DNA of 63,963 nucleotides, filler included, from Sluysia triapertura (Eukaryota), in assembly GCA_046118255.1 (NCBI GenBank). It is 5 parts of 5 records of this genome, joined end to end, with 100 filler letters (N's around TTAATTAATTAA, not from the genome) between each part and the next. Parts side by side here need not be neighbours in the genome. Positions count along the whole stretch, not along the records: positions 22,941 to 36,923 come from JBJNIA010011652.1; positions 37,024 to 52,849 come from JBJNIA010217474.1; positions 52,950 to 63,963 come from JBJNIA010190152.1; 2 more parts are not named here. One strand, 5' to 3'. Position numbers and translations under genes: made by a program. This document shows, piece after piece, positions 7,849-56,942 of the stretch. The notes beneath the pieces are model-generated. The model worked only from the letters and a program-made list of their open reading frames with translations, was not told where the DNA came from and made no database searches. Numbering within the stretch: the first letter of the stretch is position 1; each line of letters begins with the position of its first letter.

Positions 7849-7910
<62 letters not shown>
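7849..7910. repeat. (AAT)n microsatellite
   Basis: About 20 perfect AAT units. Confidence 0.95.
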
Positions 7911-7913
<3 letters not shown>

Positions 7914-7934
7914 CAATAAATAAATAAAACTTAC

Positions 7935-10080: not shown

Positions 10081-10176
10081 GTTAGACTTCGTAAAATGGA
10101 CTGACCGGGGATCGAACCCGAGACCATCGCTGCGCAGTTCGATTGCTCTACCACTGAGCTATCAGCACCGTCTAAC
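10081..10176 (-). mobile_element. tRNA-derived repeat (SINE or pseudo-tRNA), copy 1
   Basis: Reverse strand has A-box TAGCTCAGTGGTAGAGC, B-box GGTTCGATCC, acceptor-like GCTGA/TCAGT and a TTTT terminator, flanked by the inverted repeat GTTAGAC/GTCTAAC. The anticodon stem pairs poorly. Confidence 0.75.
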
Positions 10177-11099
10177 AAATTCAATTCTACCAAATGGCAC
10201 TTTAGGCCTTTTACCCCAACAATATTGTTAGTGTCTGTTGCGTTACTCCTGGTTGCTTTGTCTTAATTACATTGTTATTTTTGTTATTTTAGTTGTTCTC
10301 TTATTGATAATAAATTATATTATGATTTTTTGTTTAATAGTACATCATTTTCGTAGTTTTGATTTGATTTTCAAGAACTTAAATTTGGTATAATAGTTAT
10401 TACTTTTATAAAAGAAGATTACTGCAGAAATATATTCGATATACTGACTATTTAAATTATTATGTTTCCTTAGCTAATCAAGTTAATATTGAGTCATAAT
10501 AGCTAATAATTTTAAAAACGCAACATATACACTAACTGGACAATACCAACAGGATTCACCCTCTCATATTTTGTAAACAATTTTGTTATTTTAGAAGATT
10601 CCTCTTGATTTTAATCTAGATAAATGATATACATTTTGAAGTAACTTTGTATCATACGATTTTAAAGTGATATTTTTAGAGAGTGTATATTTGTGTTATA
10701 ACTAGATTAGGATTAAGTTACACAAATTGATATTTATGGTTATTATAGATTTAATTTGTTTTGATAATTTTTAATAATTTCATATTTCAGATAATAATTA
10801 TTTTATAGATTGTTTAAAGTATATTAAATTGTTGGTTTTTTTGATTTCTTCATTGGATCTATAATATTCGAAAGTGATTTATTATTGTGATAAATATATT
10901 ATTGGTAATTATTATTATTATTATTATTATTAAAAATATTTCTGTGACATTAATATAATTCCGAACACTTTTGTGTTGTCTAATAATTCCCAAATTCACA
11001 ATAAGGAATTAAACCGACCATAATGCCTTTGACATGTAGGTGCGTGTTATAATTGTAAATATTAGAGCTGAAATTTTTAAAGAAATTGTAAATAATTAT

Positions 11100-11174
11100 G
11101 TTAGACTTCGTAAAATGGACTGACCGGGGATCGAACCCGGGACCATCGTCTGCGCAGTCCGAATGCTCTACCAC
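11100..11174 (-). mobile_element. tRNA-derived repeat, copy 2 (cut by gap)
   Basis: Near-identical to 10081-10153. Confidence 0.75.
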
Positions 11175-16730: not shown

Positions 16731-16747
16731 ACAGAATAAAAAATATT

Positions 16748-17600
16748 TTTGAATAATTTCGTATGTATTACTGAATAGTTTTTTATATAATATTGAATAA
16801 TATTATTAAATGTATATATTACTGGATAATTTTGTTTATATTATTGAATAAGTTTGTATATATTACTGAATAATTTCGTATGTATTATTGAATAATTTTT
16901 ATATATTATTGAATAATTTCGTATATATATTATTAAATAATGTATATATTTTTGAAGAATTATATATATCATTGAATAATTTTGCATATATTATTGAATA
17001 ATTTCATATATATTACTGAATAATTTCGTATATATTATTGAATAATTGTATATATTATTGAATAATATATTACTGAATAGTTGTATGTATTATTGAATAA
17101 TTTATATATTATTGAATAATTTCGTATATATTATTAAATAATGTATATATTTTTGAATAATTTTATATATATTCTTGAATAATTCTGTATATATTACTGA
17201 ATAATTTTGTATACATTACTGAATAATTTTGTATACATTACTGAATAATTTTGTATACATTACTGAATAATTCTGTATATATTACTGAATAATTTTGTAT
17301 ACATTACTGAATAATTTTGTATATATTATTGAATAATTCTGTATATATTACTGAATAATTTCGTATATATTATTGAATAATTGTATATATTATTGAATAA
17401 TATATTACTGAATAGTTGNNNNNNNNNNNNNNNNNNNNNNNNNNNNNNNNNNNNNNNNNNNNNNNNNNNNNNNNNNNNNNNNNNNNNNNNNNNNNNNNNN
17501 NNNNNNNNNNNNNNNNNNTATACATTACTGAATAATTTTGTATATATTATTGAATAATTCTGTATATATTACTGAATAATTTCGTATATATTATTAAATA
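16748..17600. repeat. About 21-23 bp AT-rich minisatellite
   Basis: Tandem variants of TATATTACTGAATAATTTTGTA, spanning a gap. Confidence 0.95.
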
Positions 17601-17625
17601 ACCCTTCAACATAAATCAAATCCAA

Positions 17626-23470: not shown

Positions 23471-24189
23471 GTGTTGGATTTATAAATAATTCAAATTTAA
23501 TAATTATTCTTTGTGAAACTTAACTTAATTCTGAATACTCTTGTATAAAAATTTAAATGTTTGATTTCGGTTTAAACTAATTATTATTTGTTATTAAATT
23601 TTGAATTTATACCAACTCTATTAAATCTCATTTTAAATTGATATAAAACATTATAGTCTTAATAATTATTTTAATTTTATTTTAAATAATTTAATTTAAA
23701 CTTGAAAAATAAATGAATGTTATAAAGTTTAAAAATTTGAAAGGATTTAAAAGATTTAAGGAGTGAATATCACGTTACATTAGGATTGAAATTATAATAG
23801 TATCTTAACAAATAAACACAAAAATAATCATTTGCTTAAGGTGTAAGGAGTAACAACAAACAAAGTATTGATTGATCGCCAGTGACGGTTTTCGTCATTG
23901 TTGTTCAAAATCTGTACTGAATAAATATTAGGATTTTAAGTTTTTATTTTTTATATAATTTTGTCTTTAAAATTAGTTGTGTAAATGTATTAGAATTATA
24001 TCATTAACATTAAACTATTATTATCTTATTTATTCTTTTTAATGTTTTTCAATCAATAATTTAGACAATGAGTTATGTACATTGCGTAATCTGTCAGAAG
24101 TCTTTTCACAAAACTATTTCCTACATACATAAAATACACTTATAATTATCTACTTTTAATTAGAACTTATAAATTGTCTGCTTTGTAGG

Positions 24190-26776
24190 TTTGGGGTTGA
24201 ATTACATTGTTTATTATAATCATTAGTGGCCTCAAGGTAATTTAGGGCTTTTTCGGTTTTTGAAATGGATTATGCTATACAATTTAATATAATTTAATAC
24301 TTCTGAAGAATAAAAATTACCATGATTAAAATTGCTTATATCTACGAAAAAGACTAAACTAACAAATGAAGATTTATTTTTACAAACACTGAAATCAAAA
24401 ATATTGAATTGAATTACTGCGTTCGGATACATTTGATCTTCTCAGGTTGTGTGATTTTTTAACACAAAATTGTCTATAAGATTATTGAATTTAGTATCTT
24501 GATTCGAAGTGTTGTAGTTTTCCTTGATTGCTAAATCGTGCACATACTTGATATTTTGGATGTCCGACATTAAGTCATTTAATTGCTCTGCATTACTGTA
24601 AAAAATATTAATTGAAGTTTCACTATAGCGTATTTGAGTAATGGTATGGAAATATCTGCATGATACTCCAAATTTGCTACATTGGCCAAGACTATTTGAT
24701 TCATATTGACACTGTCCTGTTTGGAATAATTCGTGTTTTTGTTGACTTGAAAAAACGCAGATCATAGACGAAGTTGAAAGAATTCGATCGTTTATAACAT
24801 TACTTGGTATCAAATAATCTATTGAAATTTCGCTAAGAGATCCTTTGAAGACAGATGAATCAGGATCTAATGGAATTGCAATAACGGTTTTGTATCTGTC
24901 ATCAGGAACATCATCATTGCATCCACCATCTTCATTGAGATAATTAGGAATATTTGTTGGAATGGGGATCAAACAACCTCTAACTACTAATTGAGAAATC
25001 CATTCTAATTTGTCAATTTCTTTAGTTATTAAATCTAATTCAACCGCATAAATACGATGTGTCCCAAGCATTTTAATGTCATTGTCACTTTTGTAAACTG
25101 ATTTAAGTATTGTGTACAATGAATAACACTTGAAGAAAAACATAGACTAGCGTTATTTAGGATTTTATTTAAGATCCAAAAAATGTACGATATCTGATTG
25201 ACCTAATAAATCTAAGGCGAACTTTCGGCATTAGTCTATCAATTTTCATAATATTAATTCTCTTCAATAACCTTAATGGTAAACGAAATTCTCCTGGCTC
25301 TGAACTCCTGATGATGAGTATCGATTGTTATGCCTATGCGACATTGAAGTTAACTCTAAAAAACTAAGTAGTGAATTCATTACATCCAGTTCAATTTGAA
25401 TTGAAGATTCACATACCTTAAGAATAGAATAAGGGTCATGTAGAGCATAAGACAAGATTGATAATCAAAGACAGGATAATTTGAAAATTTTATTTTGTTG
25501 TGATACGATAAATGATTGTAAGAAATACTTGATTCTATTTTATTTTTCAGCTGGTTATATGGTTCGATTGGTTGATGTCTCAACATCTCTTCTTGATTTG
25601 TAGTTCCAATTGCGTTTCTAATTTTTGTAATTTTTTATTGTAAAAATAATGATAAAATTTTTATTCTGTCACTTATGATTAAAATTGTCTAATCAGATTG
25701 TTAGTTACAAACATTTGATAATTTACTTTTTGTGTATGCATCTTTTTTTAGCTTGATTGGTTATTTGTAATTTGTATTTACAATGATTGGATGTATAATC
25801 AAAAATAAAACGTTGACATAACTACTCTGTGAATGTATGTAATAAAGTAATTGAACTGTACTGTCTGATTGGACGTTCAATTAGAATGATAAAAATAAAA
25901 CATTGAAACAAGTTTGATTGGGCGTCCAATCAAACCATAAAACTGGATATAACTAATGTGTGGTTTAGTTAATGCCTGTATGCAAAATGATTATGATCAA
26001 TACCTGTCACCATTAAGTTTGTACAATTGATTAAATGGTAATTAAAAAGATGGTGACAGGTGAATGTGTTTTGTTAATGAAAAATAATCACTATGTCGTG
26101 GTATAAAAATAATGATAGTGGAATTAATAATTAAAATAATTAACAAAATTCGTAATTATAATAAAATAGTTAATTATATACACTAATGATAATAATAATA
26201 CTGAATAAACTAAAATAATGATAATAATAATATTAAAATTAAATTTAAAACTAAAACGCATAAATTTCACATAACTTTCTGTTCTTTCTCTTCATTCTGA
26301 ACTTACTTAACAAATGAATTTAGAAAAGTGAAATTTATTAACTTAAAAATACTAAAAAACGATTAAGAGGTGTAAATACTTGAGTGTTAATGAATTAAGA
26401 ACTTGAAATATTTTGAGTTAATTTTTACTAGCATGAGCTGTAACTTGATATTCTAATGTTATGAAAGTGTCGAATAAAATATTCTTGATGAATCCTTAAT
26501 GTAATTTGCTGATTTTGAATATCATTGTGTTTTGTATGTTATGGGGTTGTACATTTGAAATGATTTGAAAAATGGAAGTTGATTTTGGTGGATCTAAGAA
26601 GAATAAGATATAAAAATGGTTGTGAATTTAGAAATGTGAGTTGTAGATCTTGGGGTAAATGTTATGTTGACGTAGGGTTGTGTAAAAAATGGTTTTAATG
26701 AATTTATGAAAATGTAAGTTATATATAAAATAAAATTTTTAATAAAATTTGTTAAGGTAATAGATTGGCCACCACA
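24190..26776 (-). mobile_element. Giant solo LTR, TGTGGTG family, copy 1 (2587 bp) with cargo ORF
   Basis: Starts TGTGGTGGCCAATC on the reverse strand, with GTAGG direct repeats at 24185-24189 and 26777-26781. The far end is degenerate (TTT instead of TGT on +). The first kb resembles the copies at 31360, 38421, 48371 and 56688. Confidence 0.8.
24232..25610 (-). pseudogene. Cargo reading frame in LTR copy 1: disrupted protein with a CCCH-like zinc finger; longest intact piece 24442-25143
   Basis: CQYESNSLGQCSKFGVSCRYFH = C-x9-C-x6-C-x3-H. Upstream pieces are joined by frameshifts and stops; no introns are apparent. Confidence 0.5.
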
Positions 26777-27207
26777 GTAGGATCCAATTAAGTGGAATTC
26801 AAGTATTTCGCAAAGGTATATTCCTACATATTTGAAAAATAACCTGAAACCGTACTTAATCAAAACATCGAAATACAGGAGGCGGAAATAACACCACCAG
26901 AATAACTTGTATAAAATAAAGAAACACGCAATAGATATACCGCCTACAAATTTCCCTCTTGGCCTGACGCGGTCTCTGAAACATAATCGCTGCCGAAGGC
27001 AGATAAGAAGTATTTATATGGAGGCAGGGCAATATAAATGGATGAAAGATTAAGGTTAAATCCCTTCCCAAAGAAGAAAAACAATTAATTTTACTTTTAT
27101 TTTCTTTTATTTCCTTAAAATACATAAGTCATTTGATTGAATGTATATAATAAAAAAGTAAATGTTAAAAAATAAAAATATAAACTAACGATTATTTTAC
27201 ATTTTTA

Positions 27208-40129: not shown

Positions 40130-42413
40130 TTACCCTGTTTGTCTACTTTTATTTGTTTTTATATTAGAAAAAAAAATTATTTTGTCTTGGCATTTTAGTT
40201 ATAATTTTGCCTTTATGCGAATATGTAGTAGTGAAGTTTTTTTTACTTTTTTTTAATTTTTATTATTATTCCATCATTATAGTGAATTCTTTGACTTTTT
40301 TTGATTTTTTATTATTGTTTCATTATTATCCAAGGTAATTTCTTTCCTTTTTTACTGAATCTTTTTACTAAAAAATTCTAATTTTCTGTTAGGATACTTT
40401 GAAAATGAGTAGCGACGATGAATCGGATGTGGAATATGAAAATATATTTTGTATAACTGAAAATGGATCTGATGAAAGCGGAAATTCTTGTAATGAAGAA
40501 AGTGACAGTGATGATGAAAATTGGCAATTACTTAGTAATGAAGTATTTGCTGAGGCTCCCGACAGGTTTCCGTTTACTGCCAATCCAGGGTCAACTGTTT
40601 TGAAGGAAGAATTAGATAGTTTTGAATATTTTAAATTATTTTTTGACGATTTTATTTGCAACCTGCTAATTGTTGAAACCAATAGGTATGCTCAACAACA
40701 GCCAACAACTTCTGAACGCTCCGATTGGCAACCAATTACAAAAGAAGAAATGTATATTTATTTGGCAATCATAATTTTACAAGGTATAATCAAAAAACCT
40801 GTAGAAGAAATGTACTGGTCGAAGAGGGAAATTATAAATACTCCATTTTTTTACAAAAATTATGTCGTATAAACGATATAAGGACATAAAAAAACATTTT
40901 CATATTGTCGATAATGAATCATTTGATCCAGAAAATCATCCATGTCCAAAATTATATAAAATATGGACATTTTTTGAAAACATCAATAAAAAGTTTTCTA
41001 AATTCTATGTTCCTGATAGAGATGTATCCATCGACGAAAGTCTTATGCTGTACAAAGGCAGACTTTCGTGGAAACAGTACATTCCTACTAAAAGATCAAG
41101 GTTTGGGGTTAAATTTTATAATTTATGTGAATCTAGTTCTGGATATGTATATTCCAGTATCATTTATACAGGCAAGGGTACTTTCCTCAATAGCCAATAC
41201 TCAGATCTGCCTATAACTTCTCAAATAGTTTTAACCCTATTACAACCTCTTCTCAATCAAGGGTATTGTCTAACCACCGATAATTTTTACACGAGTCCTC
41301 AGTTAGCAGATATTTTAATAAAACAAAAAACAGACACGTATGGCACCCTAAAACAAAATAGAAAAGGCTTACCAGATCAACTAAAAAGTAAAAAATTGAA
41401 AAAAGGTGAAACCGTAAGTGTTAGACAAGGAAAAGTGATGGTGCTCAAGTGGAAAGATAAAAAAGACATAACATTATTATCTACAATACATAATAATGAA
41501 TTAAAAAATACAAATAAAGTAGACAAAGAAGGAAACCCGGTAAAAAAACCTATCCTTGTGATGGATTATAACAATACAATGGGAGGAGTAGATCTAATGG
41601 ATCAGCGAATACATGATTATGCTATAGCTAGAAGTAGAGGCAAGAAGTACTACAGAAAAATTTTTCTCAATTGCTGGATACTTGCATTTTAAATTCTTTT
41701 ATATTGTATAAAAAAACGGTGGAGAAAGAGAAAATTTCGAATTTCGAATGTGTCTTGTAGAACGGTTAGTAGAAAATTTTCATACAAGTGAACCTTCAAA
41801 AAAAGGGGAAGACCTAGTGCAACTCCAAGTCCTCTAAGATTAACAGAAAGACATTTTCCAAGTATTGTTTCACCAGCCGAAAAAAAGACAAATGTTTCTC
41901 GTAGGTGTGTAGTGTGCAGTAAAAATAAAAAAAGGAAAGAATCTCGTTATGAGTGTAAAAACTGTAATGTCGGATTATGTATTGTCCCGTGCTTCGAAAT
42001 TTTTCACACAAAACTGAATTTTTAGTTTCAATTATTGAACAAATAAAAATTAATTATATTTATTTATTTTATTACTTATCATCCCACCTTAAATTTCTCG
42101 TTTTTGTATTTTTTTAGTTTTGGTCACCATTTTGACATAAATATAATCGAAAATGAAGCAAAAATTTAAAATTTCTGGCCAAAATATAAAAAGTTTCAAA
42201 ACTGATAAATATTTATAATGTACTCTTTTAATTTGATACCCAACACAAAATTTAAAAAAATACTTTTTTAGTCAAAATTGACCCTAATTTAAAAATTTTT
42301 AAGAAAAAATATTTTTTTATAATTTAAACTAAAACAAACCATTTTCACTAATAAAAAAAATAGCCAGTTTTCGACCATACACTTGAAAAATAAATAAACA
42401 GGTAAGGGGTTAA
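40130..42413 (+). mobile_element. piggyBac (PGBD4-like) transposon; transposase 40405-42025 split by frameshifts
   Basis: Acidic N-terminus, SIDESL, KQYIPTKRSRFGVK, TTDNFY, YNNTMGGVDLMDQ, and a C-terminal RCVVC...YECKNCNVGLC..PCF..FH. The right end is AAACAGGTAAGGGG-TTAA; the left end is only partly recognisable (TTACCCTGTTT). Confidence 0.92.
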
Positions 42414-43149
42414 GCCTGTAATTTACATTCCATAAAATTTTAATAGATTATTGTATAATTAACTTTTATTTGTAATCAAATTCATCAAAATATTTAGCAA
42501 ATTATGTGTTAGGGCTTATTTTTTTACAGAATAGACACTGGCGTTTCAATTAGTTAATCAGTGAGTAATCCCACTTTTATTTCCTTTACTAGAGACAAGT
42601 AGAACTAACATCAATTTTAAAGTCTATTATAAGTTGAAGCAACCTAATAAATACAACAAAATGACGCACGTACTGAAAATTAAAGTTTAAATTTACATAT
42701 CTGTAACAAAAAGTGAATAACACTTATAACACGATAAATAATTTTCATTAAAGTAATTTATATTTAAGTAATAAATTTGCTATTACATTATATTTTATTA
42801 TTAATTATTCTCATTTATTATTACTGTGCTATATAATTACTATTCATTTATTAAATTTTTTGGGCACAGATATTACCAAATGCTTTAGTAATGTTACTGT
42901 TCTATTATTTTTTATCAGTATTAATACAATAAAAATAATAAAATTATTATAAAAATAGAAGAGTATTATTAAATTATACAAAATTTAATGTAAACCAATA
43001 TTTAATTTTACACGTTTTTATACTTACTTATATTAATAAGTAATTTAGTACGTTTTTTAATATAAAAATGAAATAAATAAAAATCTGAATATCCTGTTTA
43101 TATTTATGTAATATATAAATTGTCATATAATACGGTAAGTTTATTTAGA

Positions 43150-44117
43150 ATGCATAAACTTCTATGTGCTTTAACAATAGTTACTGTCTTTGCAGATATT
43201 ATTGCAATTCAGTTCGAGAAATGCTTGAAAGATCATGAAAATTCTTATAACAATATAATGCCCGGAGATGGTGGATTTCTAATTTTATTACGGGATTTAA
43301 CTGGTAAAATGGTTGATAGGTTTGTACCTGGTGAAAAGTATAGGCTGATTATAAAGAATCAAAAATATGGAGTAGGGTTTCATGATTATTCATTGTATTC
43401 AACTTTGCCTGTGACAGATTTTAAGAAAAAAGGTTTGGGTCACGAAAATGTTGGTATGTTTATGATCACAGAAAAATATGGCCATCTAAATAAAAAGTGT
43501 CCTAATAAAATATTTAGTACTGGATTAAATTTGAGGCGAATTGTAAGAGTAATATGGGAAGCTCCTAAATATCCTATTTCATGTATAACATTTTATGGTC
43601 AAATTATTATGAATAGAAAAATGATTTTTGAAAATGAAGGAATGCTTATGAAAAAGTTGTGCCCGACAAAAGTATTAGATTTAAAAATATTAATGCAAAT
43701 GAAATTGAAAGATGAAAATATGACTATGACTAAACCAAAACCATTACCACCTATGATTAAAGAGTGTTGTGCATGCGGAGAAGCTAGTTATCGAGTTACA
43801 TTTCAAGGATTATGGTCAAAATCAACCCATCCTAAAGATTGGCCCAAGTACAAAAGTATGTTACATTGGACAAATCTTATTGGAGCTACCCATGATGGCG
43901 AATATTTTATTTATTACAATGGAGGATATGCAAGTACTGGAGTTAGAAGTATTTGTTCATATGGTGACAATACAATGTTGAAGAAGACTTTCGCAACTAT
44001 AAAAGTAAAAAAACATCTGAAAAGTTTTTTCTCTTCTCGTGGAATTTGGAATGAAGATGAATTGTTGGATAACAGAACAGGCTATATAGCAGTTAACAGA
44101 ACTTATCCGTTGTTTAG
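43150..44117 (+). CDS. SPON1: F-spondin (spondin-1)-like, first coding exon: signal peptide, Reeler domain and start of Spondin_N
   Basis: MHKLLCALTIVTVFA signal, GDGGF...FVPGEKY...WEAP...CITF (Reeler), and CCACGEASYRVTFQGLWSKSTHPKDWP...HWTNLIGATH (Spondin_N). Donor AG|GTTAGT at 44118. Downstream exons were not identified. Confidence 0.9.
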
Positions 44118-44355
44118 GTTAGTTGAAATTTCTTACTCCAATGTTAAACATAAATAGCAAAACTCTATTTGAAAGAAAAGGTTTGATTTTCTTTAATTAT
44201 TTATAATTTTCATTACATTACAAGGATTTAATAATTTATTTTTTAATAATGAATCAATGTTTCTTCTTTATCGTGAATCCGTGAAACTAGATTATAAATG
44301 AAAAAATTTATAAAATAAAATAAATTTGTAATATTATAAAATATATCAAAATATA

Positions 44356-44477
44356 TTAACTCATAACTGGCCGCTAAAAATTCTTAATCGACTGTTTGAT
44401 GGCAACACAAACAAAGTTATTCTGGATTTCGGACAAAAAATGACGTATTACTAAGTCAGCAGCCAGTAATGAGTTAA
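44356..44477 (+). mobile_element. TTAA-flanked MITE, copy A
   Basis: TTAA-CTCATAACTGGC...GCCAGTAATGAG-TTAA, with an inverted related copy at 49554-49648. Confidence 0.75.
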
Positions 44478-44641
44478 ATCAAAACATAATTTTAAATATT
44501 TTGAAATTAAAATAATTTTGATGAAAATGAAAATTAAGTTTTAAATATTTTTTACAGTTACATGCAAATTCAATAATGCTTTCTTTAAAAAATTATAATT
44601 ATTAAATTGTTACATCTTTTGTTACATTTAATAAAACAGCA

Positions 44642-45952
44642 TGTGATGAAAAACCCGTAACTTAAAATTTTATTAGTTTTATGAGTAGTGTTTTTATAAA
44701 TGGAAGGTATAATGTTTGGTTGCTTAAAAAATTTTTGAATTTTGTAATCATGAGAAAGTTTTTATTTGTTTTGGAAGATGAAACTAATGTTATATGGTTT
44801 GTTGATTGTTTGATGACGTTATTCTGTGTGTGAATAATTGTCGTTTTGTTGAGTTTTGTAGCAAATTATCATTAAAGGATGAGTTGGTGAGGTGATTTTG
44901 AGTTTGGTATTTGTGAGGCGATTTATTATTTGTTTTGGGTGATAAAAATTGTATTGTATTATGTTTTAATTGTTCCGAATTGCTAATGTGTAAGTGTGTG
45001 TGTCATTGTTTTTATTGTTTGGAATATGTTGTGAAGATTTGACATTATTACGTGAATTGGTGGCATGGTTTTGTGTTTTATGAAGTTGCTTATTATTTGT
45101 TTTGAATTGCAGAGATTGTGTTTCATTATCCTTTGATTGTTTAAAATTATTATTATGTGCATTTGTATTGCTGCTCTTGCTCTCTCCAAGATTTAGTGAA
45201 GGTTTGGTATTATTGTATGAAATGTCTTGTACTTGATGTTTGTTATATATTTTGAATGGTAAAGGTTGTAATACTTTATTTGTTGGTTGTATGATAGTTT
45301 TGTTATGTGGACTGATATTGCTATTTTTGTTGATACATGCATTTTGAGACGGTTTGATGGTGTTAGCTAAGTTTGTAATGTTTTTCTGTGTTTTACTTAG
45401 CTTTGTTTTATTCGATTTATGTTTGATGTATGTTGAATTACATGGAGATATACTGTGGAGTACATTCTTCTGTAGATGGAAGGTGACATGTTTTTTGCTT
45501 AGATTTTTGTTCTGATCTATGTTTATATTCAGAGGTGTATGGTTATTTTGAGGTTTTGTGAATGTATTAATTATGATTTGTTGAAGTTTGTTTTATCAGT
45601 GAAATTATTAGATGAAAGTGTTGGTTGATGTTGTGGTATTGTTGTATTTGAGAAGTCTCTTATGTAGGAAATACTTTTTGAGTATAGTTTTGATGTCACT
45701 TTTAAACATATTTATATTGTCGTATATGATTTTATTTATATTGACGTACTTGTTCAAAGAAATATACATATTATATACAGATTTATTATTATTATAATTA
45801 ATATTATAATTATTTGTATATTTTTTTACAATGTTATATTGAAAAAGATTTATGTTTTTACATTTTAAGATAAAATCACGAATAAAAATTATAAAACGTG
45901 GTTTGGTGGCATATTCGAAAAATAACAGGATTTGTTTGAACTCCTGAGACCA
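44642..45952 (-). mobile_element. Internal region of an LTR retrotransposon: PBS plus decayed N/K/T/Q-rich gag-like sequence
   Basis: PBS TGGTCTCAGGAGT (45952-45940, tRNA-Leu-like TGGTGTCAGGAGT). The C/A-skewed low-complexity sequence resembles 53000-53650 and ends ...TTCATCACA. Confidence 0.6.
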
Positions 45953-45956
45953 TTTT

Positions 45957-48371
45957 TGTATTGGTTTAATTGAAATATTTTTATTATGAAAGATAAAATA
46001 TGTTACATAAAAGTCATTTATCGAAAGGGATGTATTTGTTATTTCAAAACTCTTTGTTAATATATAGAATTTAATGAAAATTTTAACTAATTTTAATTCT
46101 TTACACAAAATTGAAATCAAAAAGACATGGAAAAAACTAAGTGTATTTACTGAAACTAAATTAAAATTTGTTGATGACCAAAATGTTATTTCTCGGATAT
46201 ACCAGATGTTAAGTTCACTAAATAAATAATAAAATATTGTTAAACTCAATTTAGACAAATAGTAATTAAAATTGACTTTTATATGATATGATCGTTCTAA
46301 TTGGTATACGTTAATGTAGTTCACAAACGTGCGACTCGAACTTGCTTGGGCTTGCCTGTAAATGTCTTATAGTCAGAGAGTTTACATAACGACAATGATC
46401 CAGTTCATTTGAAACGATGAGGTCATTGACCAAAATGTTATCTTTAATATTTTGCTGGAATAATCATCAGTAAATATTACTTGTATATGATGAACACCAT
46501 TAGTGAAAACAATGCTTACAGTATTATTTTTGGAATTAACTTTATCTTTAGCATGGTTCGACTTCGCACGACATGACACAGAATATCAAATTCCTTTTCA
46601 ACTTCTTCATAACATGTTGTTAGATGAAGTTGTATTTTTCTGAATATCATTTTTTCTCTCTGCCTTCTTTCACAACTTAATTTCGATGATAAAACACCTA
46701 AAATTCTTTGCGTCTCTTCTTCTAATTCATAATGTATTATTTTATTAATCTTCACAATTATCACTTGTTGTATATGATAAAAAAACTTCTTTAATTTGAA
46801 TCGTATGATAGAGCATCACCAAAATGCGACACGGAGTTGCTGGTATAACGTAAATATCTAAAATACTAATGTTTATATCATTAGCTGCATGCCTTAATCT
46901 CACATTTAATCCTTTGTTCATTCTTATTTACTGACAGTACTTTCGTATTGTTAATTCTAAAGTAGGAATCAAAATCTTTACACATATTGTTGAATGAATG
47001 GGATACCATAAGGAAAAATCTCTTTGTTGTCGTTTTTAGATAAACCAATCTCATGTTTACATTGAAGTAATAGTGGTATAACATGTTGTTGAGCTTGAAC
47101 ATATTTAGAATATTTTAATTTAGATACGTTATCTAGAATTGTAGACAATTTGACTGCCGTTGTTATCATTATAGGACTAAATTGAATTTCACTTTAGAAA
47201 TTGTAAGGTTATAAATTGAAACTGTTCTTTTTATCAATGTTAACTGTTACCTGTTACTATTATTTGTTGATATTCTGATTGTTGTAAACAAAATTATATT
47301 GTATTAAAATCCAATAATGTTTTTCGAAGTATCAATCTCTTGTAATTCTAATTTTTCACTTTTCTGATTATTTTTAACGTAATGAAATCTTCAATTTTAA
47401 GAACACTTTTATTTATTTTTATATATTCTGATTGAGTTTAATTAATGAATTCAGTTGTGTTTGTTTTTGTTTTCAACTCGTCTACTGTATTTTGCGTTTT
47501 TTACTTGGCTATTATTGTGTGCTTTTTTTGTTACTCTATTAAGTGTGTAATCAACTATTGGACATCCAATCAGGAGGATAATAATATTTAGGTATGGAGA
47601 AGTGATTGGATATCCAATTGCAGTGAGCTCGAAATGTTTTGATTAATAACTATCAGTAATGACAGATGGTATGAAGAAATTAGAACTGATAGTGGTGGAT
47701 ACAAAAATGAATTTGAACAATGATAATAATATAAAAAATGCAAAATGTAAAATTGAAATACATAAATCCTTTTCGTAATCATAAAAACACGAATTTTCTA
47801 TTATTTTTTATCCCTTCTTGACATAAATATAATTGAAATCATCTTACGGTTTTTAAAATTTAAACGAAAAATATAATTTTGAAGTTTTGGATGGTATACA
47901 AGCTTGAATGCTGAAAGATTGTAAGATTAAAAAATTTTGGATTGATTTAAGATGTAAATTTGATAGTTTGAGATGTACTTGTGATTTTAATGTCACTAGA
48001 TAATGCGTAAAAATATTATAAATAAACTTTAAATTGTAAATTGATGGTTTTAAATGTAATTGTAATTCTGATATTATGAATAACGGATTGAAATGTTTTA
48101 AGTAAAATTTAATGTGCGTTAATGATCTGAAAGTGAATGAAATTTTAATGTTGTAAAGTATGAAATGGAAATGTTTTGAGAAGTTGTGATAAGGTTTTAT
48201 TGAAAGTAAAGGAGACAAAATATGAAAAGATTTAGATGTAAAAGTATTTAAAATGATACGAAATTTTATACTTGAAATGTTTGATGGTATAAAGTGTTTT
48301 AAAATGTTGTGAAGAATGATTTTGCTGCCTGTTGTGTTACAAAATTTCAAATTGTAGGGTTGGTCACCACA
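45957..48371 (-). mobile_element. Giant 5' LTR, TGTGGTG family, copy 4 (2415 bp) with disrupted unknown cargo (about 46300-47400)
   Basis: TGTGGTGACCAACC...TTTCAATTAAACCAATACA, then AAAA and the PBS. It shares blocks such as ATGTCAAGAAG...AAATTCGTGT...ATTTATGTATTT with copies 2 and 3. Confidence 0.75.
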
Positions 48372-48746
48372 TGAAAAAAGCTGTCTAATGTTTAAGATTA
48401 TGTGGTATAAATTGAGAATTTTAATAATTTTGTTACAAGCTCATTTTGCAATTAAATCAGATGTAATGAGTTGAACCACCACAGTTTGATGTTGCTTTCT
48501 CGTCATAAATCTCAATCGAAATGGATCCATTATAACAATTGCAAACGTTCATTACAGTGATTGGATAAGAATTAATAACCAAAGACATATCCCAATGAGT
48601 AATATTCATCCAAAGAAGCTGATTGTAAGTGTTTTACGATCGTAGCAGAAATAGAGCATTCCCTCTAGTAGCACGAGTTCGTTCTTGTGCTACAAGAAAA
48701 TCGCGTAAACCATCATACAAAACCGCTGCATAGTTTCATTCTAGAA

Positions 48747-49405
48747 CAGGGATGGCGAACCTTTTTTGATGTTCGTGCCACAAAGTCAAAAAAATTCTTT
48801 TTTAAATAGGTAACGTGCCACAATAAAATTTCATTCGAAATGTTAGTGTGGTGAAACTAAACGTAAGTATAATTAAATAAACAAATAAAAGCAATTCTTC
48901 TTTAAACAATTATTTATTAATCAATGTTTTACAAAAGACAAAATGCTAGAAACACAATTCACGTTAAAAATAATTGTTTTAATGTGATTTTTGTTGCTGT
49001 ACACAGATGATAAAGATTTAATATCTGGTTCACATTTAGTTAGTTTCAACACTACGCATACACAGCTCGACGGTTTGCTAAAATGACTAATGCAGTCTGT
49101 CGTCTGATTCGAGCTCTGCGACGGCAACATGTAATAACATTAAAAGACAAAACTGGAATCGCAAAAAATTTTATCTAATGCGCATCTTTATATACTTCGA
49201 GAGAATTCATGCGATATTTTAATAATAAAATGTACAGTTTGAAGGATCTAGTTATCATACTAAAATAGGTATTCAGTACTGTAAATTTATATCATAAATT
49301 ATAAATTAAGTGTAGATTAATAATTTCTAATTCATTTCTATCAAAAAAAGATAACTAATAAAAAATAATTTTGTTTTTGTGCGTGCCATTGGTTCGCCAT
49401 CCCTG
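48747..49405 (-). mobile_element. Non-autonomous hAT (Charlie/SPIN-like) element
   Basis: Perfect 15-bp TIR CAGGGATGGCGAACC/GGTTCGCCATCCCTG, 8-bp TSD TTCTAGAA/TTGTAGAA, and transposase tail CVVLKLTKCEPDIKSLS. Confidence 0.9.
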
Positions 49406-49553
49406 TTGTAGAATGTTAATGAATATCGGAAATTCCTCCCGTAACACTTTATAAATGTAGCCATTTTGATAATGATTTTTTACCAAAAAACAACCTTACA
49501 TTTTACATTTTTCTTACTCAAATTCTTTTTTATTGCATGCACACAATTTTCAT

Positions 49554-49648
49554 TTAACTCATTACTGTTTTTGTTTGTGTTGCCATCAAACAGTCGATTC
49601 ATTTTAAGCGGCTCGATTAAGAATTTTTAGCTGCCATTTATGAGTTAA
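49554..49648 (-). mobile_element. TTAA-flanked MITE, copy B
   Basis: Reverse-complement match to 44356-44477 (TTTGTGTTGCCATCAAACAGTCGATT; GATTAAGAATTTTTAGC). Confidence 0.75.
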
Positions 49649-51290
49649 TTAATATTAATAATTACATTTTTTAACAGGTATGAAACCTTTCATTTCTGTT
49701 GGATCAAAAAGATCTATTCGAATAATAAAACCTGATTTGGATTATAAAAATCAACGAAATAATACAACAATTTCAAGTACCTATATAAATGCTGATTAAT
49801 GAAATTAATTACAGACTTAAAATTGATTTATAATTTTTATTCTACTGACACTATAAAGTAGATTAAAATTGGATTTTTTAATTTTTTGAAATAAAATTAA
49901 TACTTTTTGTTTTATTTTTAATATTAACGGTAGCAAATATTTAAATTATGTAAGCGTTTTATAAAATGGGTGTGCTTTTGAGAATGGGTTTTATGAAATT
50001 TTATTTTATACTTTCATAAGGAGTCTAATATTTTTGTTACATAAGAAGTAATTGATAATGTATTTCATTCTCATAGATATACTCACGAAAAGGTTCTTTC
50101 GTTGAAACGTAAGTGTAAATCCCAAAAGGATCATTTGAATCTAATTTAAATTTTGTATCTTAGAAAATCTAACCTTAAACCTCATTATATAATTTATTGT
50201 TTAGTAATTTAATTATTTTGAATTTCTTTAAAGTTTCGATTAAGATTTATTTCAATCTGAAAGCCAACTAGTGTCATTTGGAAGAGTTTATTTCGATTTT
50301 CATCCCAGACTTAAATTGGATCGAACGTAAGATCATTCGTTCATTAAATCTTAAAATAAATTTACTTTTTATATCATGTAAACGCATTATGTTCAAAACT
50401 ACCTTTAATTGAATTTAGATCTAACCTAACTGAATAATTAACAACCTTATCACTTTTACAACGTTTTATCTATTAACACAAATGTAGATACAACTTTATT
50501 AGACGAAACTATAACAATAAATGAAACCATCTCGATGTATGATCATTTAGTTCGAGTTAACGATACATCCTCTTTTGATATTAAGCACGAAGACAAGATT
50601 GATTTAATTTGATTAGTATACAAACATGCATCGTCCTTTTATTACTGTTATTTTGATAGCATTATCTTCAAAAATTTTAATTACATAATGACTAAAGACT
50701 CATTTGCTTGGTGTATCAAAATTGTAAATAAAATATTGTTTAATTTATATGAAATTTTCGTTAATAAATGTATAACGGACATCGATGAGAACATTGTAAA
50801 TTTGTTACATGTGTTCATAATGATTGCAGCAATCTATCTATATGGGAATTCATTAATGTATTTATAGATAAAGTTGTATCGAAATGGTATCTCAATGAGT
50901 TTTCACCTTCACTTGTACGACTATTCCATTTAGAATTTACTGCAGCAATCCAGTCATCAATGTGTAATATTTAACCCCTTACGGTCCTATTTTATTTCCA
51001 TTGAATCCTCTAGACATCCTATATAATTGCAGCTGCTGGTGTTTATGTCCTATAATAAACTTAACTGCAAAATAAAGATTAACAGAATCCGCTTGTAATA
51101 TACGACTAGCGATGGCGTATCTACAAGTAACGAAAATAAATATAATTGTTTAATTTACAAAAGGTTAGTTTCGAAACTTCCTGAGAGTCTATAATGCATT
51201 TTACTGTCTAAAAATTTAATCAAGCAATGTATAGATAAACAATACTTTATTAAGTAAACTTATGTTAGGTTCAACGACTATTCCTAATTC

Positions 51291-51294
<4 letters not shown>

Positions 51295-51332
<38 letters not shown>
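51295..51332. repeat. (TA)n microsatellite
   Basis: Perfect TA run. Confidence 0.95.
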
Positions 51333-51335
<3 letters not shown>

Positions 51336-52999
51336 AATAGTTCTTTTGAAACTTAAAAATCTTAATCTTACCTGCAAAATATCTAAGGAGTCTATCCGCC
51401 TAATACATACGATTTATACTACTCTTAGAGACGCATTATTAGGATTTTTATAACTAAACTTAGGAAGTTTTTTGCTTATACCTTATAATCTAACTAACAA
51501 TCAGTTTAATGATTAATCAATTAATTTAATTTCAAATTTTACAAATTTCACAACCCTTTTATTAAGGTGTTGTTGGAAAACAGATATTTTACTTGATAAA
51601 TTTCACAACTCTTTTGCTAAGGTATTGTTTAGAAATCAAACTTAATATTTTATTTGAAGGAAATTAAGTTAATCTTATTCGATATATTAAAATACAGCAA
51701 AAGAATATACAAAGACTAACAAATGTAAAAGGTACCAATATAATAGAGATAATGATTTTGATAACTCAATTATCAAATTGATTATGTTAAGATTTTAGGT
51801 ATAAATTATCTAACCCTCTTTAAGGTGTTTGTACAAAAATATTATAGGATTCTAAGTGTATTTTAATATTCCCAGAAATTATGGTGAATAAATAAAAACT
51901 TAACATGTAAAACATTACGTAATAGACATGGATTTTCTTTCTTGATTTTTGGATTTCGGTTTTCTACTAACTCAGTTTCTCATTTTCTTCTTGTGTGTCA
52001 AACTAAAAAATTTCGATCTATTAATATTAAACTTACGTTAGTCGCCATTTTCTTAAAAATAATTTAATTTATTCTTTATTTAAGCTAAATAATTTCTTTT
52101 TAACCTGCAAATTAATAATTTAAAACAAAAATTTCTACTCAATAAATTTTTAAATATTTTGACATTTAATATTTTTATTTTTAATGTTATTATTTTTTAA
52201 TATTTATATTTTTAATATTTATAATAATAATAATAATTTAAAGTTTATACAAATATTTATACAATACCAACATGTTATACAATAAAACATACATAAAGAT
52301 AATTTCTGACATATATATATAATAATCAAAGAAATGAATAATGAGAATAAAACGATTTAAAATAAGTGAGTTCACCAACGTATTGGACTTACTAACTTAA
52401 TGGCCAACCGTTGGATTTGTAATCAATGGACAAAATTCAATTTAACTTAATTCAATAGATTCAATATTTTATAAGGAGGTTTTTTGAAGATTTTAGGTAA
52501 TTTAAGTAATTTAAAAAAAATAATATAATTCAGTGATTTTAATAAGTTTCGATAAAACGAACCTGCTATAATGATTTTAAAAAGATTCTTAAATAGAACC
52601 TATTTATTGAGATTTGATTTTAATTAGATTCTTTCGTAGAACCTCTATTTAATCTAGATATTTTAGTAAATTCAAAAAACAATTTCGTTACAAATTCTAC
52701 AGATTATTTATTCTAAACTTACAAAAATTTCACAAATATTCGAATAAATGATAATCAATATAATTAATCAATATATAATATTAATAGCCAATTTAATTGG
52801 ATTATTTTATAAATAATCTTATGCAACAGATTTTAGTAATTATTTTAATNNNNNNNNNNNNNNNNNNNNNNNNNNNNNNNNNNNNNNNNNNNNTTAATTA
52901 ATTAANNNNNNNNNNNNNNNNNNNNNNNNNNNNNNNNNNNNNNNNNNNNAAAATATATAGAGATTCAGTTTTGTTTGATTTAAGTTTTTATAAAGAAGG

Positions 53000-55900
53000 G
53001 TTAATAATTTTATTGAAAAACACAACAGCACAAATCTGTAAAGAAGGTCCCTAAGTTAAACGTGCCATCATTGCCAATATAAATCAAAGGATTATCAAAC
53101 CCAATTCTAAAAAACTTAATACATTTAACAACACATTCAAACAACCTTCCAGAAGTATAGTTAACAAACACAACAGTCAATATCAAAGACAACAAAATGT
53201 CTCAAACCAACAGACCAACAAAAGTAACCCTAAACAAATTAAGGATGTATCGAAACAATCACCTAAAAACACAAATGTTAAAGTCAATATAAAAGACCAG
53301 AAGACTAATAAATCCAACTTTAAACAAGAATGAAAACAACAAAATCAGTGAACAAAATCAAAAGCGTACCGATATCCAAAACAAACAGCCGAAAATTTAC
53401 TCTAATAATCAGATTCAGACAATTCAAATTAAAAACCCAAATAAAACAGAACTTATTATTCCAAAAGAAGTCACAAATCAGAACAATCATATCAAAACAA
53501 TAACACTCCAGTCAATTGTAAAGCAAAACAAATCTTACCTGGTACAATAATTGACTCTACTTCGGCATTCGAGCGACATGTACATACTGAGGTTAACACA
53601 GCCAATTCAAGAACCCGCAACAATCGGATAATACATATAAAAGTAAAATGTATAGCGTGCAATCTAAACGCGCCTTAAAATCAAAAACTTCGACCCTATT
53701 AATATATTACAGAGGTTAACCATACATCCTCAGACATGGTTTAATTATCAGGCGCAACCTTTACGTCCCCATTTAAGTTTTAACGACTACGATATTTCAC
53801 AGGGAGCAATAATTTCAATAAATCATCAACTGCATGGCGGTACTGACGACGAACCTGACATTCTTACACGTACTGAGCAAGATCAAGTAACAAATATCAG
53901 TACTTCGTCGCCGTCACAATTCTTCCTAGATGATACTGGTTCTCCAAGTACATGGTTTTTGGTTGTTGAAGCCATAGGAGCCGATAATAGGAGCCGATAA
54001 TAGGAGCCGAATTTCTTACTCATTACAAACTCCTAGTCGATTGCCACTATAAAACTTTAACAGAGTCCTTCGAACAACTCAATCATATTAAAATTTAACT
54101 TGAGTATCTCAACAGCAATAATATTACTCAATATTTACAACAAATTCACCTAATCTATTACTTGAACAATTCAACCCAGAATATGTTCCTAGATCAGAAC
54201 ATTTTATAAAAGCAATACCTACACCACCGTTCAGACAACGACGACGAGAAAATACGTTCTCATTCAGAGACAGAATTTCTTGAAATGGAAGGACAAGGAA
54301 TAGTGCGACGCTCTTCTTCTTCACGGGCCGCACCTCTGCAAATAGTCAAAATAAAAAGATGGAAGAAAGAAAGATGGAACAATAAGGATATGTGGTGACT
54401 ACAGAATGCTCAATAAAGTCACAGTTCCAGGCGAATATCCTATGCCACTAATAACAGACATTTTTCACAGATTTATAGGTTACATAATCTTCTCTTCATT
54501 AGACCTGGCCAAGGCTTACCATCAAATCCCAGTACATACTGAGGATATACCAAAACAACCGTAATAACTCCTTTCGGTCTAAGAAATGCAGCATAAACTT
54601 TCCAGCGTCACATCGATCAATTTCTTCAAGGCTTAATTTTCACTACAGCCTATATCGATGACATCATAATTGCTTCCAGAGATATCAAACACATCTGGAA
54701 CAAGAATTCCAAAGACTTTCGGACAATAATCTTATAATCAAAATTAACAAATGTCAATTTTTCAAAAATAAGATCATCTTTCTAGGTAACAACATTTCTG
54801 TTGACGGTACAGAACAGAACCACAGGAAACCCGTACAACAGCAATAAGAAACTTCCACAACCTAAAACAGTCACATAAATGAGAAGTTTCTTAGGCCTAG
54901 TCAAAAAATTCCGACGCTTTATCCCGAAACTGTCAGAAATTATTGCACCATTAACAGTTCTATAATCGGAAAAGAAAAATCAACAAATCAATTGGAATAC
55001 AAAATCTCTGGACTCCTTTGAACAAACAAAACAAGCAATTATAAAAATGGAAAATCTTAACAATCGATGCTTCAAATATAGCAATAGGTGCGGTACCAAC
55101 ACAAAATCAACAAGAAACAACCAGGCCCATCGAATTTTATTCCAACGTACTTTCTGCACAACAAACCAAATATTCGGCATTCGACCATGAATTGCTTGCA
55201 ATTTATCTTTCCGTAAAACACTTCATGTATTTATTATCCCAACGCAATTCACACTTAGAACAGACCACAAACTGTTGTTACACATTTTCACAATGAAAAA
55301 CCCACTCCAACAACGGCAAATCAGTTACTTGTCCAAATTCAACTTCAATATAGAATTTATCCCAGGACAAGCAAATGTGGTTGCAGATGCATTATCACGT
55401 GTAGGTTTAAATAGAATTGAATATCAGTCAATATTCACTGTCGAAGAATTACAAAACAATCCACCATTTTTCTAGAAATTTCCAAATTTTCAATAAAACC
55501 ATCATTACAAAATGGAATTTTCTACGACTACCAATTATCAGGTGCTTCTCGACCAGTGCTAGGACAACAGCTCCAAATCAAAGCTTTTGAATATATCCGC
55601 AATATGACATATGCGGAGCTAAGGCCACATATGAATTACTACACTCAAAAGTAGTATGACATCAAACACTGGTGTAAAGCCTGTTTGACTTGTCAATCTG
55701 TGAAAATTCACAAAAACATAAGCCACAAACGCTTCACTTGCCCACAGGCCAACTCTTCGATACAATACACATGGGCATAGTCGGTCCACTACCACAATCC
55801 TGTGGTTACACTTACATCTTAACTATACTTGACCGACAAAGCAGATGGCCTGAAGCGTTTCCAATTAGATCAATAACAACGGACACCATATCCAGAATTC

Positions 55901-56687
55901 TAATAACAAACTGGATTTCACGCTTTCGTGTACCCAAGAGAATTATCACAGATCGAGGAGCTCAATTCGAGTCTAGCCTTTTCAATAATCTACTTAAACA
56001 ACTAGGCAGTGCTAGACTACGAACAACTTCATACCATCCACAGTCTAATGGTATGATATAGATATTCCGTAGAACTCTCAAAAACTCCTTGATTGCGCTA
56101 TCAATATACCATAATGGGGTTGATACGTTACCTTTTTTAATCTTATTAGGCTGGCGTAATATCCCTCATTCTTCAAGAGGATATTCTCCAGCTCAAATCG
56201 TATTAGGAACCGATACTAGATTACCCTTTGAATTGTTCGAACATGATAATCCGTCAGAAAAAATATATTCACCTCTTTTGCAGCAATATTTCAACGAATT
56301 GAACAAATCAACACGTCACAACGAGAATCCTCACATTTATATACCTAAAAACATTTCAGACGGCAAATTTTTGTGGCTCAAATCAGAGAATCCAGAATAT
56401 CTTCAACCAAGATAAACCGATCCCTATAAATTCATCCAGTTAAATTCAAATAACAACACAGCTTCATCGACATTAACGGAAAATCAAAAACAGATAACTG
56501 ATGTAAGCTTAAACCAGCTGCAATTCTAGTTGAAGAAGATTCACAAACTATACCAATAAAGAAATCAGTAACCTTCAATAACACGACTACTCTACTAAAT
56601 GAACAGGGTTTACACTAAAATCAATTAAACCTATCACATTCATCTTAATTTTAAATGTCTGTCGTTCCGCGTCTTCGAGGGGGCTGA
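53000..56687 (+). mobile_element. Decayed Ty3/Gypsy retrotransposon internal region (gag-like, protease, RT, RNase H, integrase, PPT)
   Basis: FLDDTGS / IGAxFLTHYKLLVD (protease); RICGDYRMLN, FSSLDLAKAYHQIP, PFGLRNA, YIDDIIIAS (RT); TIDAS, TDHKLL (RNase H); IVGPLP, DRQSRWPEAFP, TDRGAQFES, YHPQSNG (integrase); PPT GAGGGGGCTGA at 56677-56687. Confidence 0.95.
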
Positions 56688-56942
56688 TATGGTGACCGAC
56701 CTATTACTTTTGGCAAATTTTATTTAAAAATTTTCTTTTGAACATTACAAAACCACATAAACTTTCAAAATATACAATATACATTTTAAAATCCATTAAA
56801 ACATTTTATACATAGTTCCATGTCAATATAATCAAAATCATATATTTCAAAATCACACTCACCCTTAATATATACGACTCACATTTTTAAATTCACAGTT
56901 CAATACAAACATAACTAAAATCATATCCTTTTCAACACCACA
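56688..56942 (+). repeat. 3' LTR start of the Gypsy element (TGTGGTG family; short or truncated)
   Basis: Directly after the PPT: TATGGTGACCGACCTATTACTTTTGGCAAATTTTATT..., collinear with the first about 250 bp of 31360+. Ends ...TCAACACCACA. Confidence 0.8.

Follow-up and report, generated by a model that had tools for sequence, protein, structure and literature searches.

The analysed window, a stretch of 63,963 nucleotides from the AT-rich genome of the animal Sluysia triapertura, contains four long units (A to D) and one short unit (E) that open with a common terminal sequence, together with a broken Ty3/Gypsy internal region. The original prediction had placed TGTGGTG(G/A)YC starts on five segments; a motif search of the window found the motif exactly at four of them, 26776 (-), 31360 (+), 38421 (+) and 48371 (-), while the fifth, at 56688 (+), opens with TATGGTGACC, one change from the motif. 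Each scored against the other starts, these five occupy ranks 1 to 5 among 46,498 T-initial 34-mers. Beyond these, a sixth family start was found at 48483 (-) and, at 44642 (+), a 31-mer resembling the start. The block of 0.8-1.3 kb said to be shared behind the starts holds as a layout, which in A to D consists of a C/A block, an AAT repeat, hairpins and a CCAAT cluster (the latter found in all four long units), but not as sequence. Over bases 1-450 all six pairs of A to D exceed locally shuffled controls (z 3.6-30.9), over bases 451-900 only B-C (z 8.3) and C-D (z 4.2) beat every shuffle, and over bases 901-1300 no pair of the four rises above the shuffled controls; identity across the shared 5' block is 58-73%. 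In the same kind of shuffle comparison the final 120-200 bp of the five units are mutually unlike (z -1.1 to 1.6), the first 250 bp are not repeated inside A, B, C or D (scores 25-29 against shuffle means of 25.5-28.6), and no primer-binding site (PBS) was found after base 255 in any of these four. Stops or frameshifts interrupt the cargo frames of all four long units, none of which retains an open piece longer than the 234 codons in A, and the copies in the window are dead. A search of Rfam across positions 23000-58000 returned 0 matches at E 1.

Copy number was estimated as summed contig depth of sequencing run X1, in which the single-copy level is 14-25; the comparison was made with the cargo of C and the whole of E left aside. 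A run search of the window returned one run, with 0.41 of its words, and no RNA run among those listed, an outcome that carries no information on expression; the window may derive from the same sample as X1. Judged by contig depth, the 5' block is present in far more copies than any single cargo. The direct repeats GTAGG, TTGAA and GTGAG that had been proposed as target-site duplications (TSDs) are all present. Since CA plus a matching 5-mer occurs within 5 kb of 44% of 4,948 random positions, each 5-bp repeat needs outside support, which was obtained for B and A and not for C.

Unit B (31360..34228, +, 2869 bp) has TG...CA ends and is flanked directly by TTGAA (31355-31359 and 34229-34233). 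It is inserted in the right terminal repeat of a DNA transposon (30332..34460, strand not assigned; 233-bp arms, 89% complementary), which we take, from a transposase motif rather than a family search, to be Tc1/mariner-like. This terminal repeat resumes on the far side of B, and its partner at the other end of the transposon represents the empty site, with a single copy of the TTGAA 5-mer. Both ends of B are fixed by this empty site, which establishes B as a single TG...CA insertion carrying a 5-bp TSD; a second CA plus TTGAA within B (position 2258), considered as its end, was ruled out by the same comparison. Hairpins and CCAAT boxes occupy 32160..32440 (+). All six depth bins of B lie at 843-8008, the five that follow the first at 843-2486, and 24-54 variant contigs were found at each of seven listed sites in 32667-33724. 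The unit shows several features expected of a solo LTR: it has TG...CA ends and a flush TSD, and neither a second LTR nor a PBS or pol was found inside it. Its cargo is enclosed in this single unit.

Unit A (24190..26776, -, 2587 bp) is a candidate long solo LTR by its start motif, repeats and depth, with the GTAGG repeats (24185-24189 and 26777-26781) flush with both ends and likewise no second LTR, PBS or pol inside. At exactly 26776, among the contig loose ends listed (6 of 4,055 and 6 of 904 rows), 85 run X1 contigs depart from the window into unlike flanks, and therefore this start is a real element end; the ends at 31360, 34228, 46357 and 48371 fall outside the rows listed, which does not count against them. 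The opposite terminus, which reads AA rather than CA (one letter off), matches the end of E at 10 of 13 positions, a score reached by 0.028% of windows. Its TSD is further backed by a finger spacing like that of B and by a depth step at 24190, the last depth bin of A being 184 against the 173 expected from such a step. Accordingly, the placement of A's cargo inside one TSD-bounded unit that has no second LTR is well supported. A hairpin and CCAAT cluster spans 25570..26060 (-), with seven boxes in 360 bp; the spans behind the CCAAT p-values were picked after the boxes had been seen. Broken frames run from 25586 and are followed by the open piece of 234 codons (24445..25146, -), which contains an Unkempt-like CCCH finger at about 24645-24711 (PF25427, E 8.7e-7, under the Pfam cut-off); against structure 5ELH the cargo gave E 0.053. 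The 234-aa piece had 0 hits among 89 candidates and 0 in 1.84 billion representatives, and the depth of the A cargo is 251-375, as compared with 14-25 for single-copy sequence.

The CCA-adding enzyme that had been recognized as the cargo of B was confirmed by domain and homologue searches: positions 32679..33682 (+) encode a TRNT1 fragment corresponding to residues ~95-436 of a 479-aa homologue, disrupted by one frameshift and four stops. It lacks the GG.VRD part of the active-site motif, and the second aspartate is altered; neither the complete N-terminal nucleotidyltransferase motif nor the open frame of an active class II CCA-adding enzyme is present. With half of this motif missing, the encoded protein could at most, judging by its sequence, have bound tRNA ends. 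The fragment continues through a position where 30 of 60 short hits from the database are interrupted, probably the site of a widely conserved intron, and it is cut at both ends, with no A-run longer than 7 and no poly(A); by eye, no TSD of its own was found. It looks like a piece derived from mRNA and amplified along with unit B, and an apparently intron-less, doubly truncated mRNA piece would point to reverse transcription. Neither a close relative nor a sister copy of the B cargo was found among 1,952 and 74 hits, the best reaching 37-40% over most of the query.

A decayed CCCH finger homologous to that of A follows in B (33700..33800, +); the likeness of the two (z 6.3) was reached by 0 of 200 shuffles. 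Across the six frames of the window the strict CCCH motif is confined to A and B, and in both the finger lies ~480-500 bp from the unit end. TRNT1 stops, in sense orientation, ~20-50 bp short of this shared module, and at that position the front part of A is a different one. Thus both units carry the finger, preceded by TRNT1 in B and by orphan sequence in A, and the cargo of each is present in multiple genomic copies. Since the finger is common to them, the cargos of A and B are not wholly unrelated, contrary to what had been supposed, and instead of carrying separate genes these two copies are better read as having different front parts joined to a common finger; the CCCH-like assignment itself stands, although below the Pfam cut-off.

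Units C and D are less regular. The 5' end of C (38421..42560, +) is certain and its 3' end doubtful. It carries a broken coiled-coil-like cargo (~39340-40120, +) and then a piggyBac-type transposon (40120..42413, +; PF13843, E 4e-15 and 8e-68) with a decayed left end and a right end just before TTAA, so that about 2.3 kb of the unit are piggyBac, which the earlier reading had missed. The GTGAG repeats lie at 38416-38420 and 42561-42565, and an amplified end of the family type was not found at this TSD: the terminus of C matches that of E at 4 of 13 positions, and across the final 146 bp of the unit the depth comes close to the single-copy level (31 vs 16-20 at a likeness of 85%). Unit D (46357..48371, -, 2015 bp up to the CA before a PBS-like site) has no TSD and bears a broken, unnamed cargo from ~47169 (-); its depth is 4046-5879 in the 5' block and 107-498 elsewhere. 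No named homologue was found for the C and D cargos, whose hits were confined to weak, sub-threshold matches to coiled-coil or DUF families. The 112 bp directly upstream of D (48372..48483, -) form the extra family start.

The PBS-like site after D (46333..46356, -) lacks the first T and has TCGA in the register of a tRNA T-loop, and a B-box reading fits as well. Its pattern, which was set post hoc, has this sole match on either strand of the window, and a literature search found no match for the motif. The end of D at 46357 is unlike the family end, one 644-bp contig departs from D at 46345, and depth is flat across the D end and the PBS-like site (162, 186, 183), with no step up on the LTR side. 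Beyond the site lies a repeated, non-coding-like region (44642..46332, -; depth 162-313 outside microsatellite bins) with a C/A-rich second half, which on neither strand resembles the Gypsy leader, E or the 5' blocks (z -1.5 to 0.9). It ends in the 31-mer at 44642, which is inverted relative to the family start and, though imperfect, outscores every other non-self window among 46,498; at 44641 two contigs carry another flank.

The link of the family to retrotransposons is provided by positions 52960-56942. A broken Ty3/Gypsy internal region (52960..56676, +) with a C/A-rich leader encodes pol in the Ty3/Gypsy order of reverse transcriptase (54355-54844), RNase H (55045-55472) and integrase (55678-56058), detected as Pfam RVT_1, RT_RNaseH and rve; the 5' end of the element is lost at the gap 52850-52949. 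A polypurine tract (56677..56683, +) stands 4 nt before E (56688..56942, +), a 3' LTR of 255 bp with inverted ends and no cargo, whose last 7 bp exactly invert the family start and whose own TG reads TA. Of the proposed adjacency of LTRs to priming sites, the polypurine tract before E is present, and the PBS after D is weak to moderate. E is 73% like B over 170 bp, the homology (z 21-24) extends to the end of E, and both the homology to A and B and the C-skew end at 56942; an apparent match of sequence past E to B and D is explained by AAT microsatellite. The first 255 bp of B are homologous to an LTR that follows pol and a polypurine tract. In both A and B the stretch that aligns with E is precisely the opening 255 bp, and beyond these only the last ~13 bp of A and B match it; for B this terminal match is 7 of 13, reached by 4% of windows and including the CA used as a criterion.

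We consider it somewhat more likely than not that A and B are long solo LTRs of Gypsy-related, probably non-autonomous elements, the front part of whose ORF came from host mRNA. Several features of the proposed cargo slot stand: the cargo within a single unit, a 5' end homologous to a Gypsy LTR, and an mRNA-like TRNT1 piece. On the other side, the only LTR joined to pol is the short, empty E, and the finger is common to A and B. Of the arrangement that would speak against such a slot, pol-bearing elements having only ~255-bp LTRs with cargo between them, one half is seen in E, whereas the cargo of A and B lies within a unit; the window holds neither an element with two long LTRs nor a long unit on a pol-bearing element. 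Taken together, the original prediction is partly confirmed, its core being real and its details overstated. The interior of such LTRs would have grown between a conserved start and a conserved end of ~13 bp, E being either a short form or possibly the product of a deletion between two TTCAA motifs. The CCAAT block may drive transcription, which would place the ORF in R/U5; reverse transcriptase could then switch to a co-packaged mRNA and back, exchanging the ORF front, and copying of U5 would carry the chimera into both LTRs. Recombination between the LTRs would leave promoter-plus-ORF cassettes with a TSD, presumably mobilised in trans by pol-bearing elements like that of E.

An unlikely alternative is that the long units are single non-autonomous cassettes with LTR-derived ends, moved as DNA, Pack-MULE-like, by an integrase or a Ginger-type transposase. 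The link to pol, which exists for the short LTR only, would agree with it, as would the inverted 31-mer and second flank that close D with its downstream region, the weak inversion of the B end relative to the family start (rank 168), and the TGT...CA ends which Ginger1 and Ginger2 have in common with Gypsy (PMC2836005). The same account gives Ginger elements terminal inverted repeats of 40-270 bp, a 4-bp TSD in animals and a transposase gene, none of which was found in A to C, where the repeats are of 5 bp, and a Pfam scan of cargo pieces gave no hit to an integrase-like transposase lacking reverse transcriptase. Moreover, no TSD was found for 48371-44642 as a unit, and the truncated TRNT1 piece points to reverse transcription. 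Rather improbably, the cargo could instead have entered a long LTR once and independently, as a LINE-driven or Helitron-driven retrocopy or DNA insertion, and been carried since as a passenger with no recurring slot. Of the cargos, only that of B leads back to a host gene, those of A, C and D being orphans, LTRs are described as gaining small-RNA pieces through SINE insertion (PMC10886601), and a poly(A) or TSD may have decayed beyond recognition; but TRNT1 ends in sense beside the finger, just where A has another front part, has no poly(A), and its 3' truncation is unlike L1 retrocopies as portrayed in PMC5131818. Ordinary capture, with a 255-bp 5' LTR, internal cargo and a 3' LTR lost or decayed, is very improbable: E looks complete at the length that corresponds to the first part of A and B, and all 15 Drosophila cases in PMC5131818 replace internal ORF sequence, but the TSD of B is flush with an end where no 3' LTR stands, A to D lack a PBS behind base 255, and a second LTR in B should still be visible, as most contigs matched to the window (12,689 of the 19,393 from run X1) are >90% alike.

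The solo-LTR reading has partial counterparts among known systems. Animal LTR-mediated retrocopies are mRNA pieces cut at both ends, without poly(A), in sense orientation, forming two-gene chimeras and amplified as non-autonomous elements (Tan et al., 2016, PMC5131818); the TRNT1 piece is alike in its two cut ends, missing poly(A) and orientation, but the retrocopies replace the ORF between two LTRs, whereas B encloses its cargo in one TSD-bounded unit. The Cassandra, Helenus and Ajax TRIMs also have host-derived sequence in a non-autonomous LTR, animal Helenus being tied to Gypsy, but they carry fragments of small RNAs, with a Pol III promoter, and their LTRs are short, in contrast to kilobase coding pieces behind CCAAT boxes in units of 2.6-2.9 kb (Kojima, 2024, PMC10886601). 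LTRs of 1.9-6.5 kb in Ogre show that the lengths of A and B fall within a known range, and many host-like domains are described in planarian Gypsy elements of the Burro/GYPSM1 kind; in both, the extra ORFs are placed in the internal region, whereas the Gypsy element in the window is compact, with no Burro feature noticed (PMC6431247). A literature search at the level of listings, with subscription papers, Repbase and the supplements of PMC5131818 (where junctions within LTRs may be recorded) outside its scope, found no protein-coding capture inside an LTR beyond MMTV sag and the small-RNA TRIMs. MMTV sag is similarly a protein-coding frame in an LTR, but a single fixed viral gene, unlike a variable front on a shared finger downstream of a CCAAT block. 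It is positioned in U3, upstream of the promoter.

A wider reading is possible, though tentative and rather doubtful: a Gypsy lineage would have used its LTR as an exchangeable gene slot, with a Pol II promoter and an ORF in R/U5, in which pieces of host mRNA, here the tRNA-end-binding body of TRNT1, were joined time and again to one constant, Unkempt-like finger that binds RNA, kept by selection in the active family and scattered as promoter-plus-gene solo LTRs. LTR elements prime on tRNA 3' ends, and a captured domain predicted to bind such ends would be suggestive for that reason. Gene capture by LTR elements has so far been described for the internal region, which collapse to a solo LTR removes. 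Cargo in the LTR would, if this is true, be doubled at each insertion, survive the collapse and bring its own promoter, a direct way for chimeric genes to arise at many scattered sites. For Sluysia triapertura, false multi-copy "gene families" of TRNT1 and CCCH fingers are predicted in annotations of the genome.

The sole LTR joined to pol in the window is E (56688-56942, +), which follows a region of reverse transcriptase, RNase H and integrase, all broken and in Gypsy order (52960-56676), and a purine tract, as originally described for an LTR after the Gypsy PPT. E is 73% alike to B across 170 bp and homologous to A and B through base 255, its last, and its final 7 bp are an exact inverse of the family start, TGTGGTG(G/A)YC; past base 255 homology and C-skew disappear. 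Hence this LTR is short (255 bp) and empty, which is the main result against the original prediction of giant, gene-carrying LTRs on a Gypsy element. As a whole, that prediction was confirmed in part as an observation and supported in part as an interpretation.

The window (GC ~25%) comprises five contigs of 11-16 kb with 100-base gaps at 11175, 22841, 36924 and 52850, each spelled N44, a 12-base all-frame stop linker and N44. The long units A (24190-26776, -, 2587 bp) and B (31360-34228, +, 2869 bp) share a contig, C (38421-42560, +) and D (46357-48371, -, 2015 bp) lie on the next, and E on the last; their closeness may be an artefact, adjoining contigs not necessarily being genome neighbours. 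Spondin and family-92 glycosyltransferase genes, recognized by Pfam profiles, and the 35-40% matches of the tRNA CCA-adding enzyme (TRNT1) piece of B to molluscs, nematodes and insects point to an animal genome. Repeat structure only was taken from X1, the contigs of one public run, which may be the sample behind the window; summed X1 depth is not copy number and is therefore quoted beside the single-copy depth of 16-20 over the spondin-type exon (PF06468; 43081-44157, +), a single-copy sequence between C and D. The window also contains a minisatellite (16733-17601, unit ~22 bp), abundant repeats at 35992-36850 (151 contigs exit at 36850) and 23574-23900 (65 exit at 23574), a very abundant element of ~120 bp that is flanked by TTAA and has inverted ends (44356-44475; 80 contigs exit at 44355-44356), and tRNA-like sequence without a normal anticodon at 10078-10168 and 11097-11174, inside a 77-bp direct repeat (95% alike) that may be a tRNA-derived element.

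Scored each against the remaining starts, the five named starts took ranks 1-5 among 46,498 windows, and 85 X1 contigs cross A's start into dissimilar flanks (agreement 0.43); the unit start is real. A sixth family start, 112 bp extra immediately upstream of D (48372-48483, -), is possibly a nested insertion target. The C/A-skewed 5' block, expected to be shared over 0.8-1.3 kb, proved shorter: against locally shuffled controls, homology was detected in 6/6 pairs of A-D over bases 1-450, for B-C and C-D only over bases 451-900, and in no pair over bases 901-1300. Beyond the shared sequence A-D have a common layout of an AAT repeat, hairpins and then 2-7 CCAAT boxes. X1 depth in D is 4046-5879 over the 5' block versus 107-498 over the rest; copies of the front block far outnumber those of the D cargo.

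Three units were thought to be bounded by exact 5-bp repeats. A matching 5-mer after CA arises by chance at 44% of random positions, so all three TSDs required outside support. A Tc1-like element carries B within its right terminal repeat; its left terminal repeat aligns with both B flanks and holds the 5-mer once, as an empty site; B is thus one 2869-bp TG...CA insertion, with the strongest TSD support of the units. It is repeated over its whole length: the X1 depth of its six bins ranges from 843 to 8008, and 24-54 variant X1 contigs occur at the seven listed sites of its cargo. The 5-mer of A is present twice within 6 kb; its TSD is upheld by the end at the first of these, where the last 13 bases are 10/13 like E's end (0.028% of windows reach this), by a finger-to-end distance of 498 bp versus 475 in B, and by the X1 depth of the end bin (184), which fits the 173 expected from the step there. 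An open 435-codon orphan frame (27184-28491, +), 400 bp from A's start and directed away from it, has single-copy depth and no Pfam match; its paralogue stands at the window's left edge (16-291, +; 32% across 93 aa, E 7e-10). The repeat of C lacks comparable support: since ~2.3 kb of the unit is a piggyBac-type transposon (40120-42413, +; transposase nearly whole with frameshifts, left end decayed), X1 depth over the last 146 bp is 31 (single-copy 16-20) and its end is dissimilar to the family end, unit C is doubtful.

D has no TSD. It alone among the long units has a PBS-like site, which lacks the first T, carries TCGA in T-loop register and is, post hoc, the window's only such match; one 644-bp X1 contig tracks D as far as 46345 and then diverges. 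Against the claimed PBS, depth is flat over 46357 and D's end is dissimilar to E's. The repeated region after D is closed by a start-like 31-mer at 44642 (+), inverted to D's start, where two X1 contigs carry a different flank; the unit so closed showed no TSD.

The CCA-adding enzyme was recovered as cargo of B, in a broken frame: TRNT1 residues ~95-436 (numbering of a 479-aa homologue), with four stops and one frameshift; the piece starts from the first of the catalytic aspartates, and the motif's GG.VRD half is missing. The motif ending LRYF is present in 60 of 74 short database matches, and 30 of these 60 break directly after it (32 flagged, P0189 and P0154 removed); 118/120 full-length matches continue past it. 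We read this break as a widely kept intron; the B piece passes the point ungapped, and no A-run >7 occurs in B. The CCCH-like cargo of A has an Unkempt-like finger (PF25427, E 8.7e-7, under the cut-off; 5ELH, E 0.053), and database searches gave no homologue for the remainder. This cargo is likewise repeated (X1 depth 251-375; one contig 83% alike across 483 bp). The cargos of A and B are not unrelated, as had been supposed: a decayed CCCH finger in B, <=~50 bp 3' of TRNT1, matches that of A (z 6.3; 0/200 shuffles as good), and across six frames the strict finger motif occurs at these two sites only. No finger was found in C and D, whose cargos received no name from profile search.

Taken together, the data comprise a single insertion with TSD, termini shared with a Gypsy LTR, no second LTR, a variable front on a shared finger, and amplification. 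We lean slightly towards the long units being solo LTRs of long-LTR elements, probably non-autonomous, in which the CCAAT block would be the promoter and the ORF would be located in R/U5; its front would have been replaced through template switching to host mRNA, and recombination would have left solo cassettes behind. That a long unit is a single cassette moved at the DNA level seems unlikely; Ginger, according to the portion of the source available, requires long TIRs (PMC2836005). Still less probable is a one-off insertion of cargo into an LTR. Least credible is a cargo in the internal region of an element whose 3' LTR has gone: the pol-linked LTR is short, but none of A-D contains a second copy of its own first 250 bp, and A and B are not short LTR-cargo-short LTR; they look like E's two ends holding 2.3-2.6 kb between them.

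Putative solo long LTRs with replaced fronts may be set beside several known systems, as far as the accessible parts of the sources go: Ogre LTRs measure 1.9-6.5 kb and the Burro elements of planarians have host-like domains in their internal part (PMC6431247), pieces of host small RNA are known within LTRs (PMC10886601), and the corresponding parts of PMC3726574 and PMC11410931 hold nothing further on cargo inside LTRs. No case of protein-coding host capture inside an LTR was among the matches listed in our literature searches. Gene capture by template switching is documented across animals and, in the part of that work available, is sited in the internal region (PMC5131818), whereas here the cargo lies within a unit without a second LTR.
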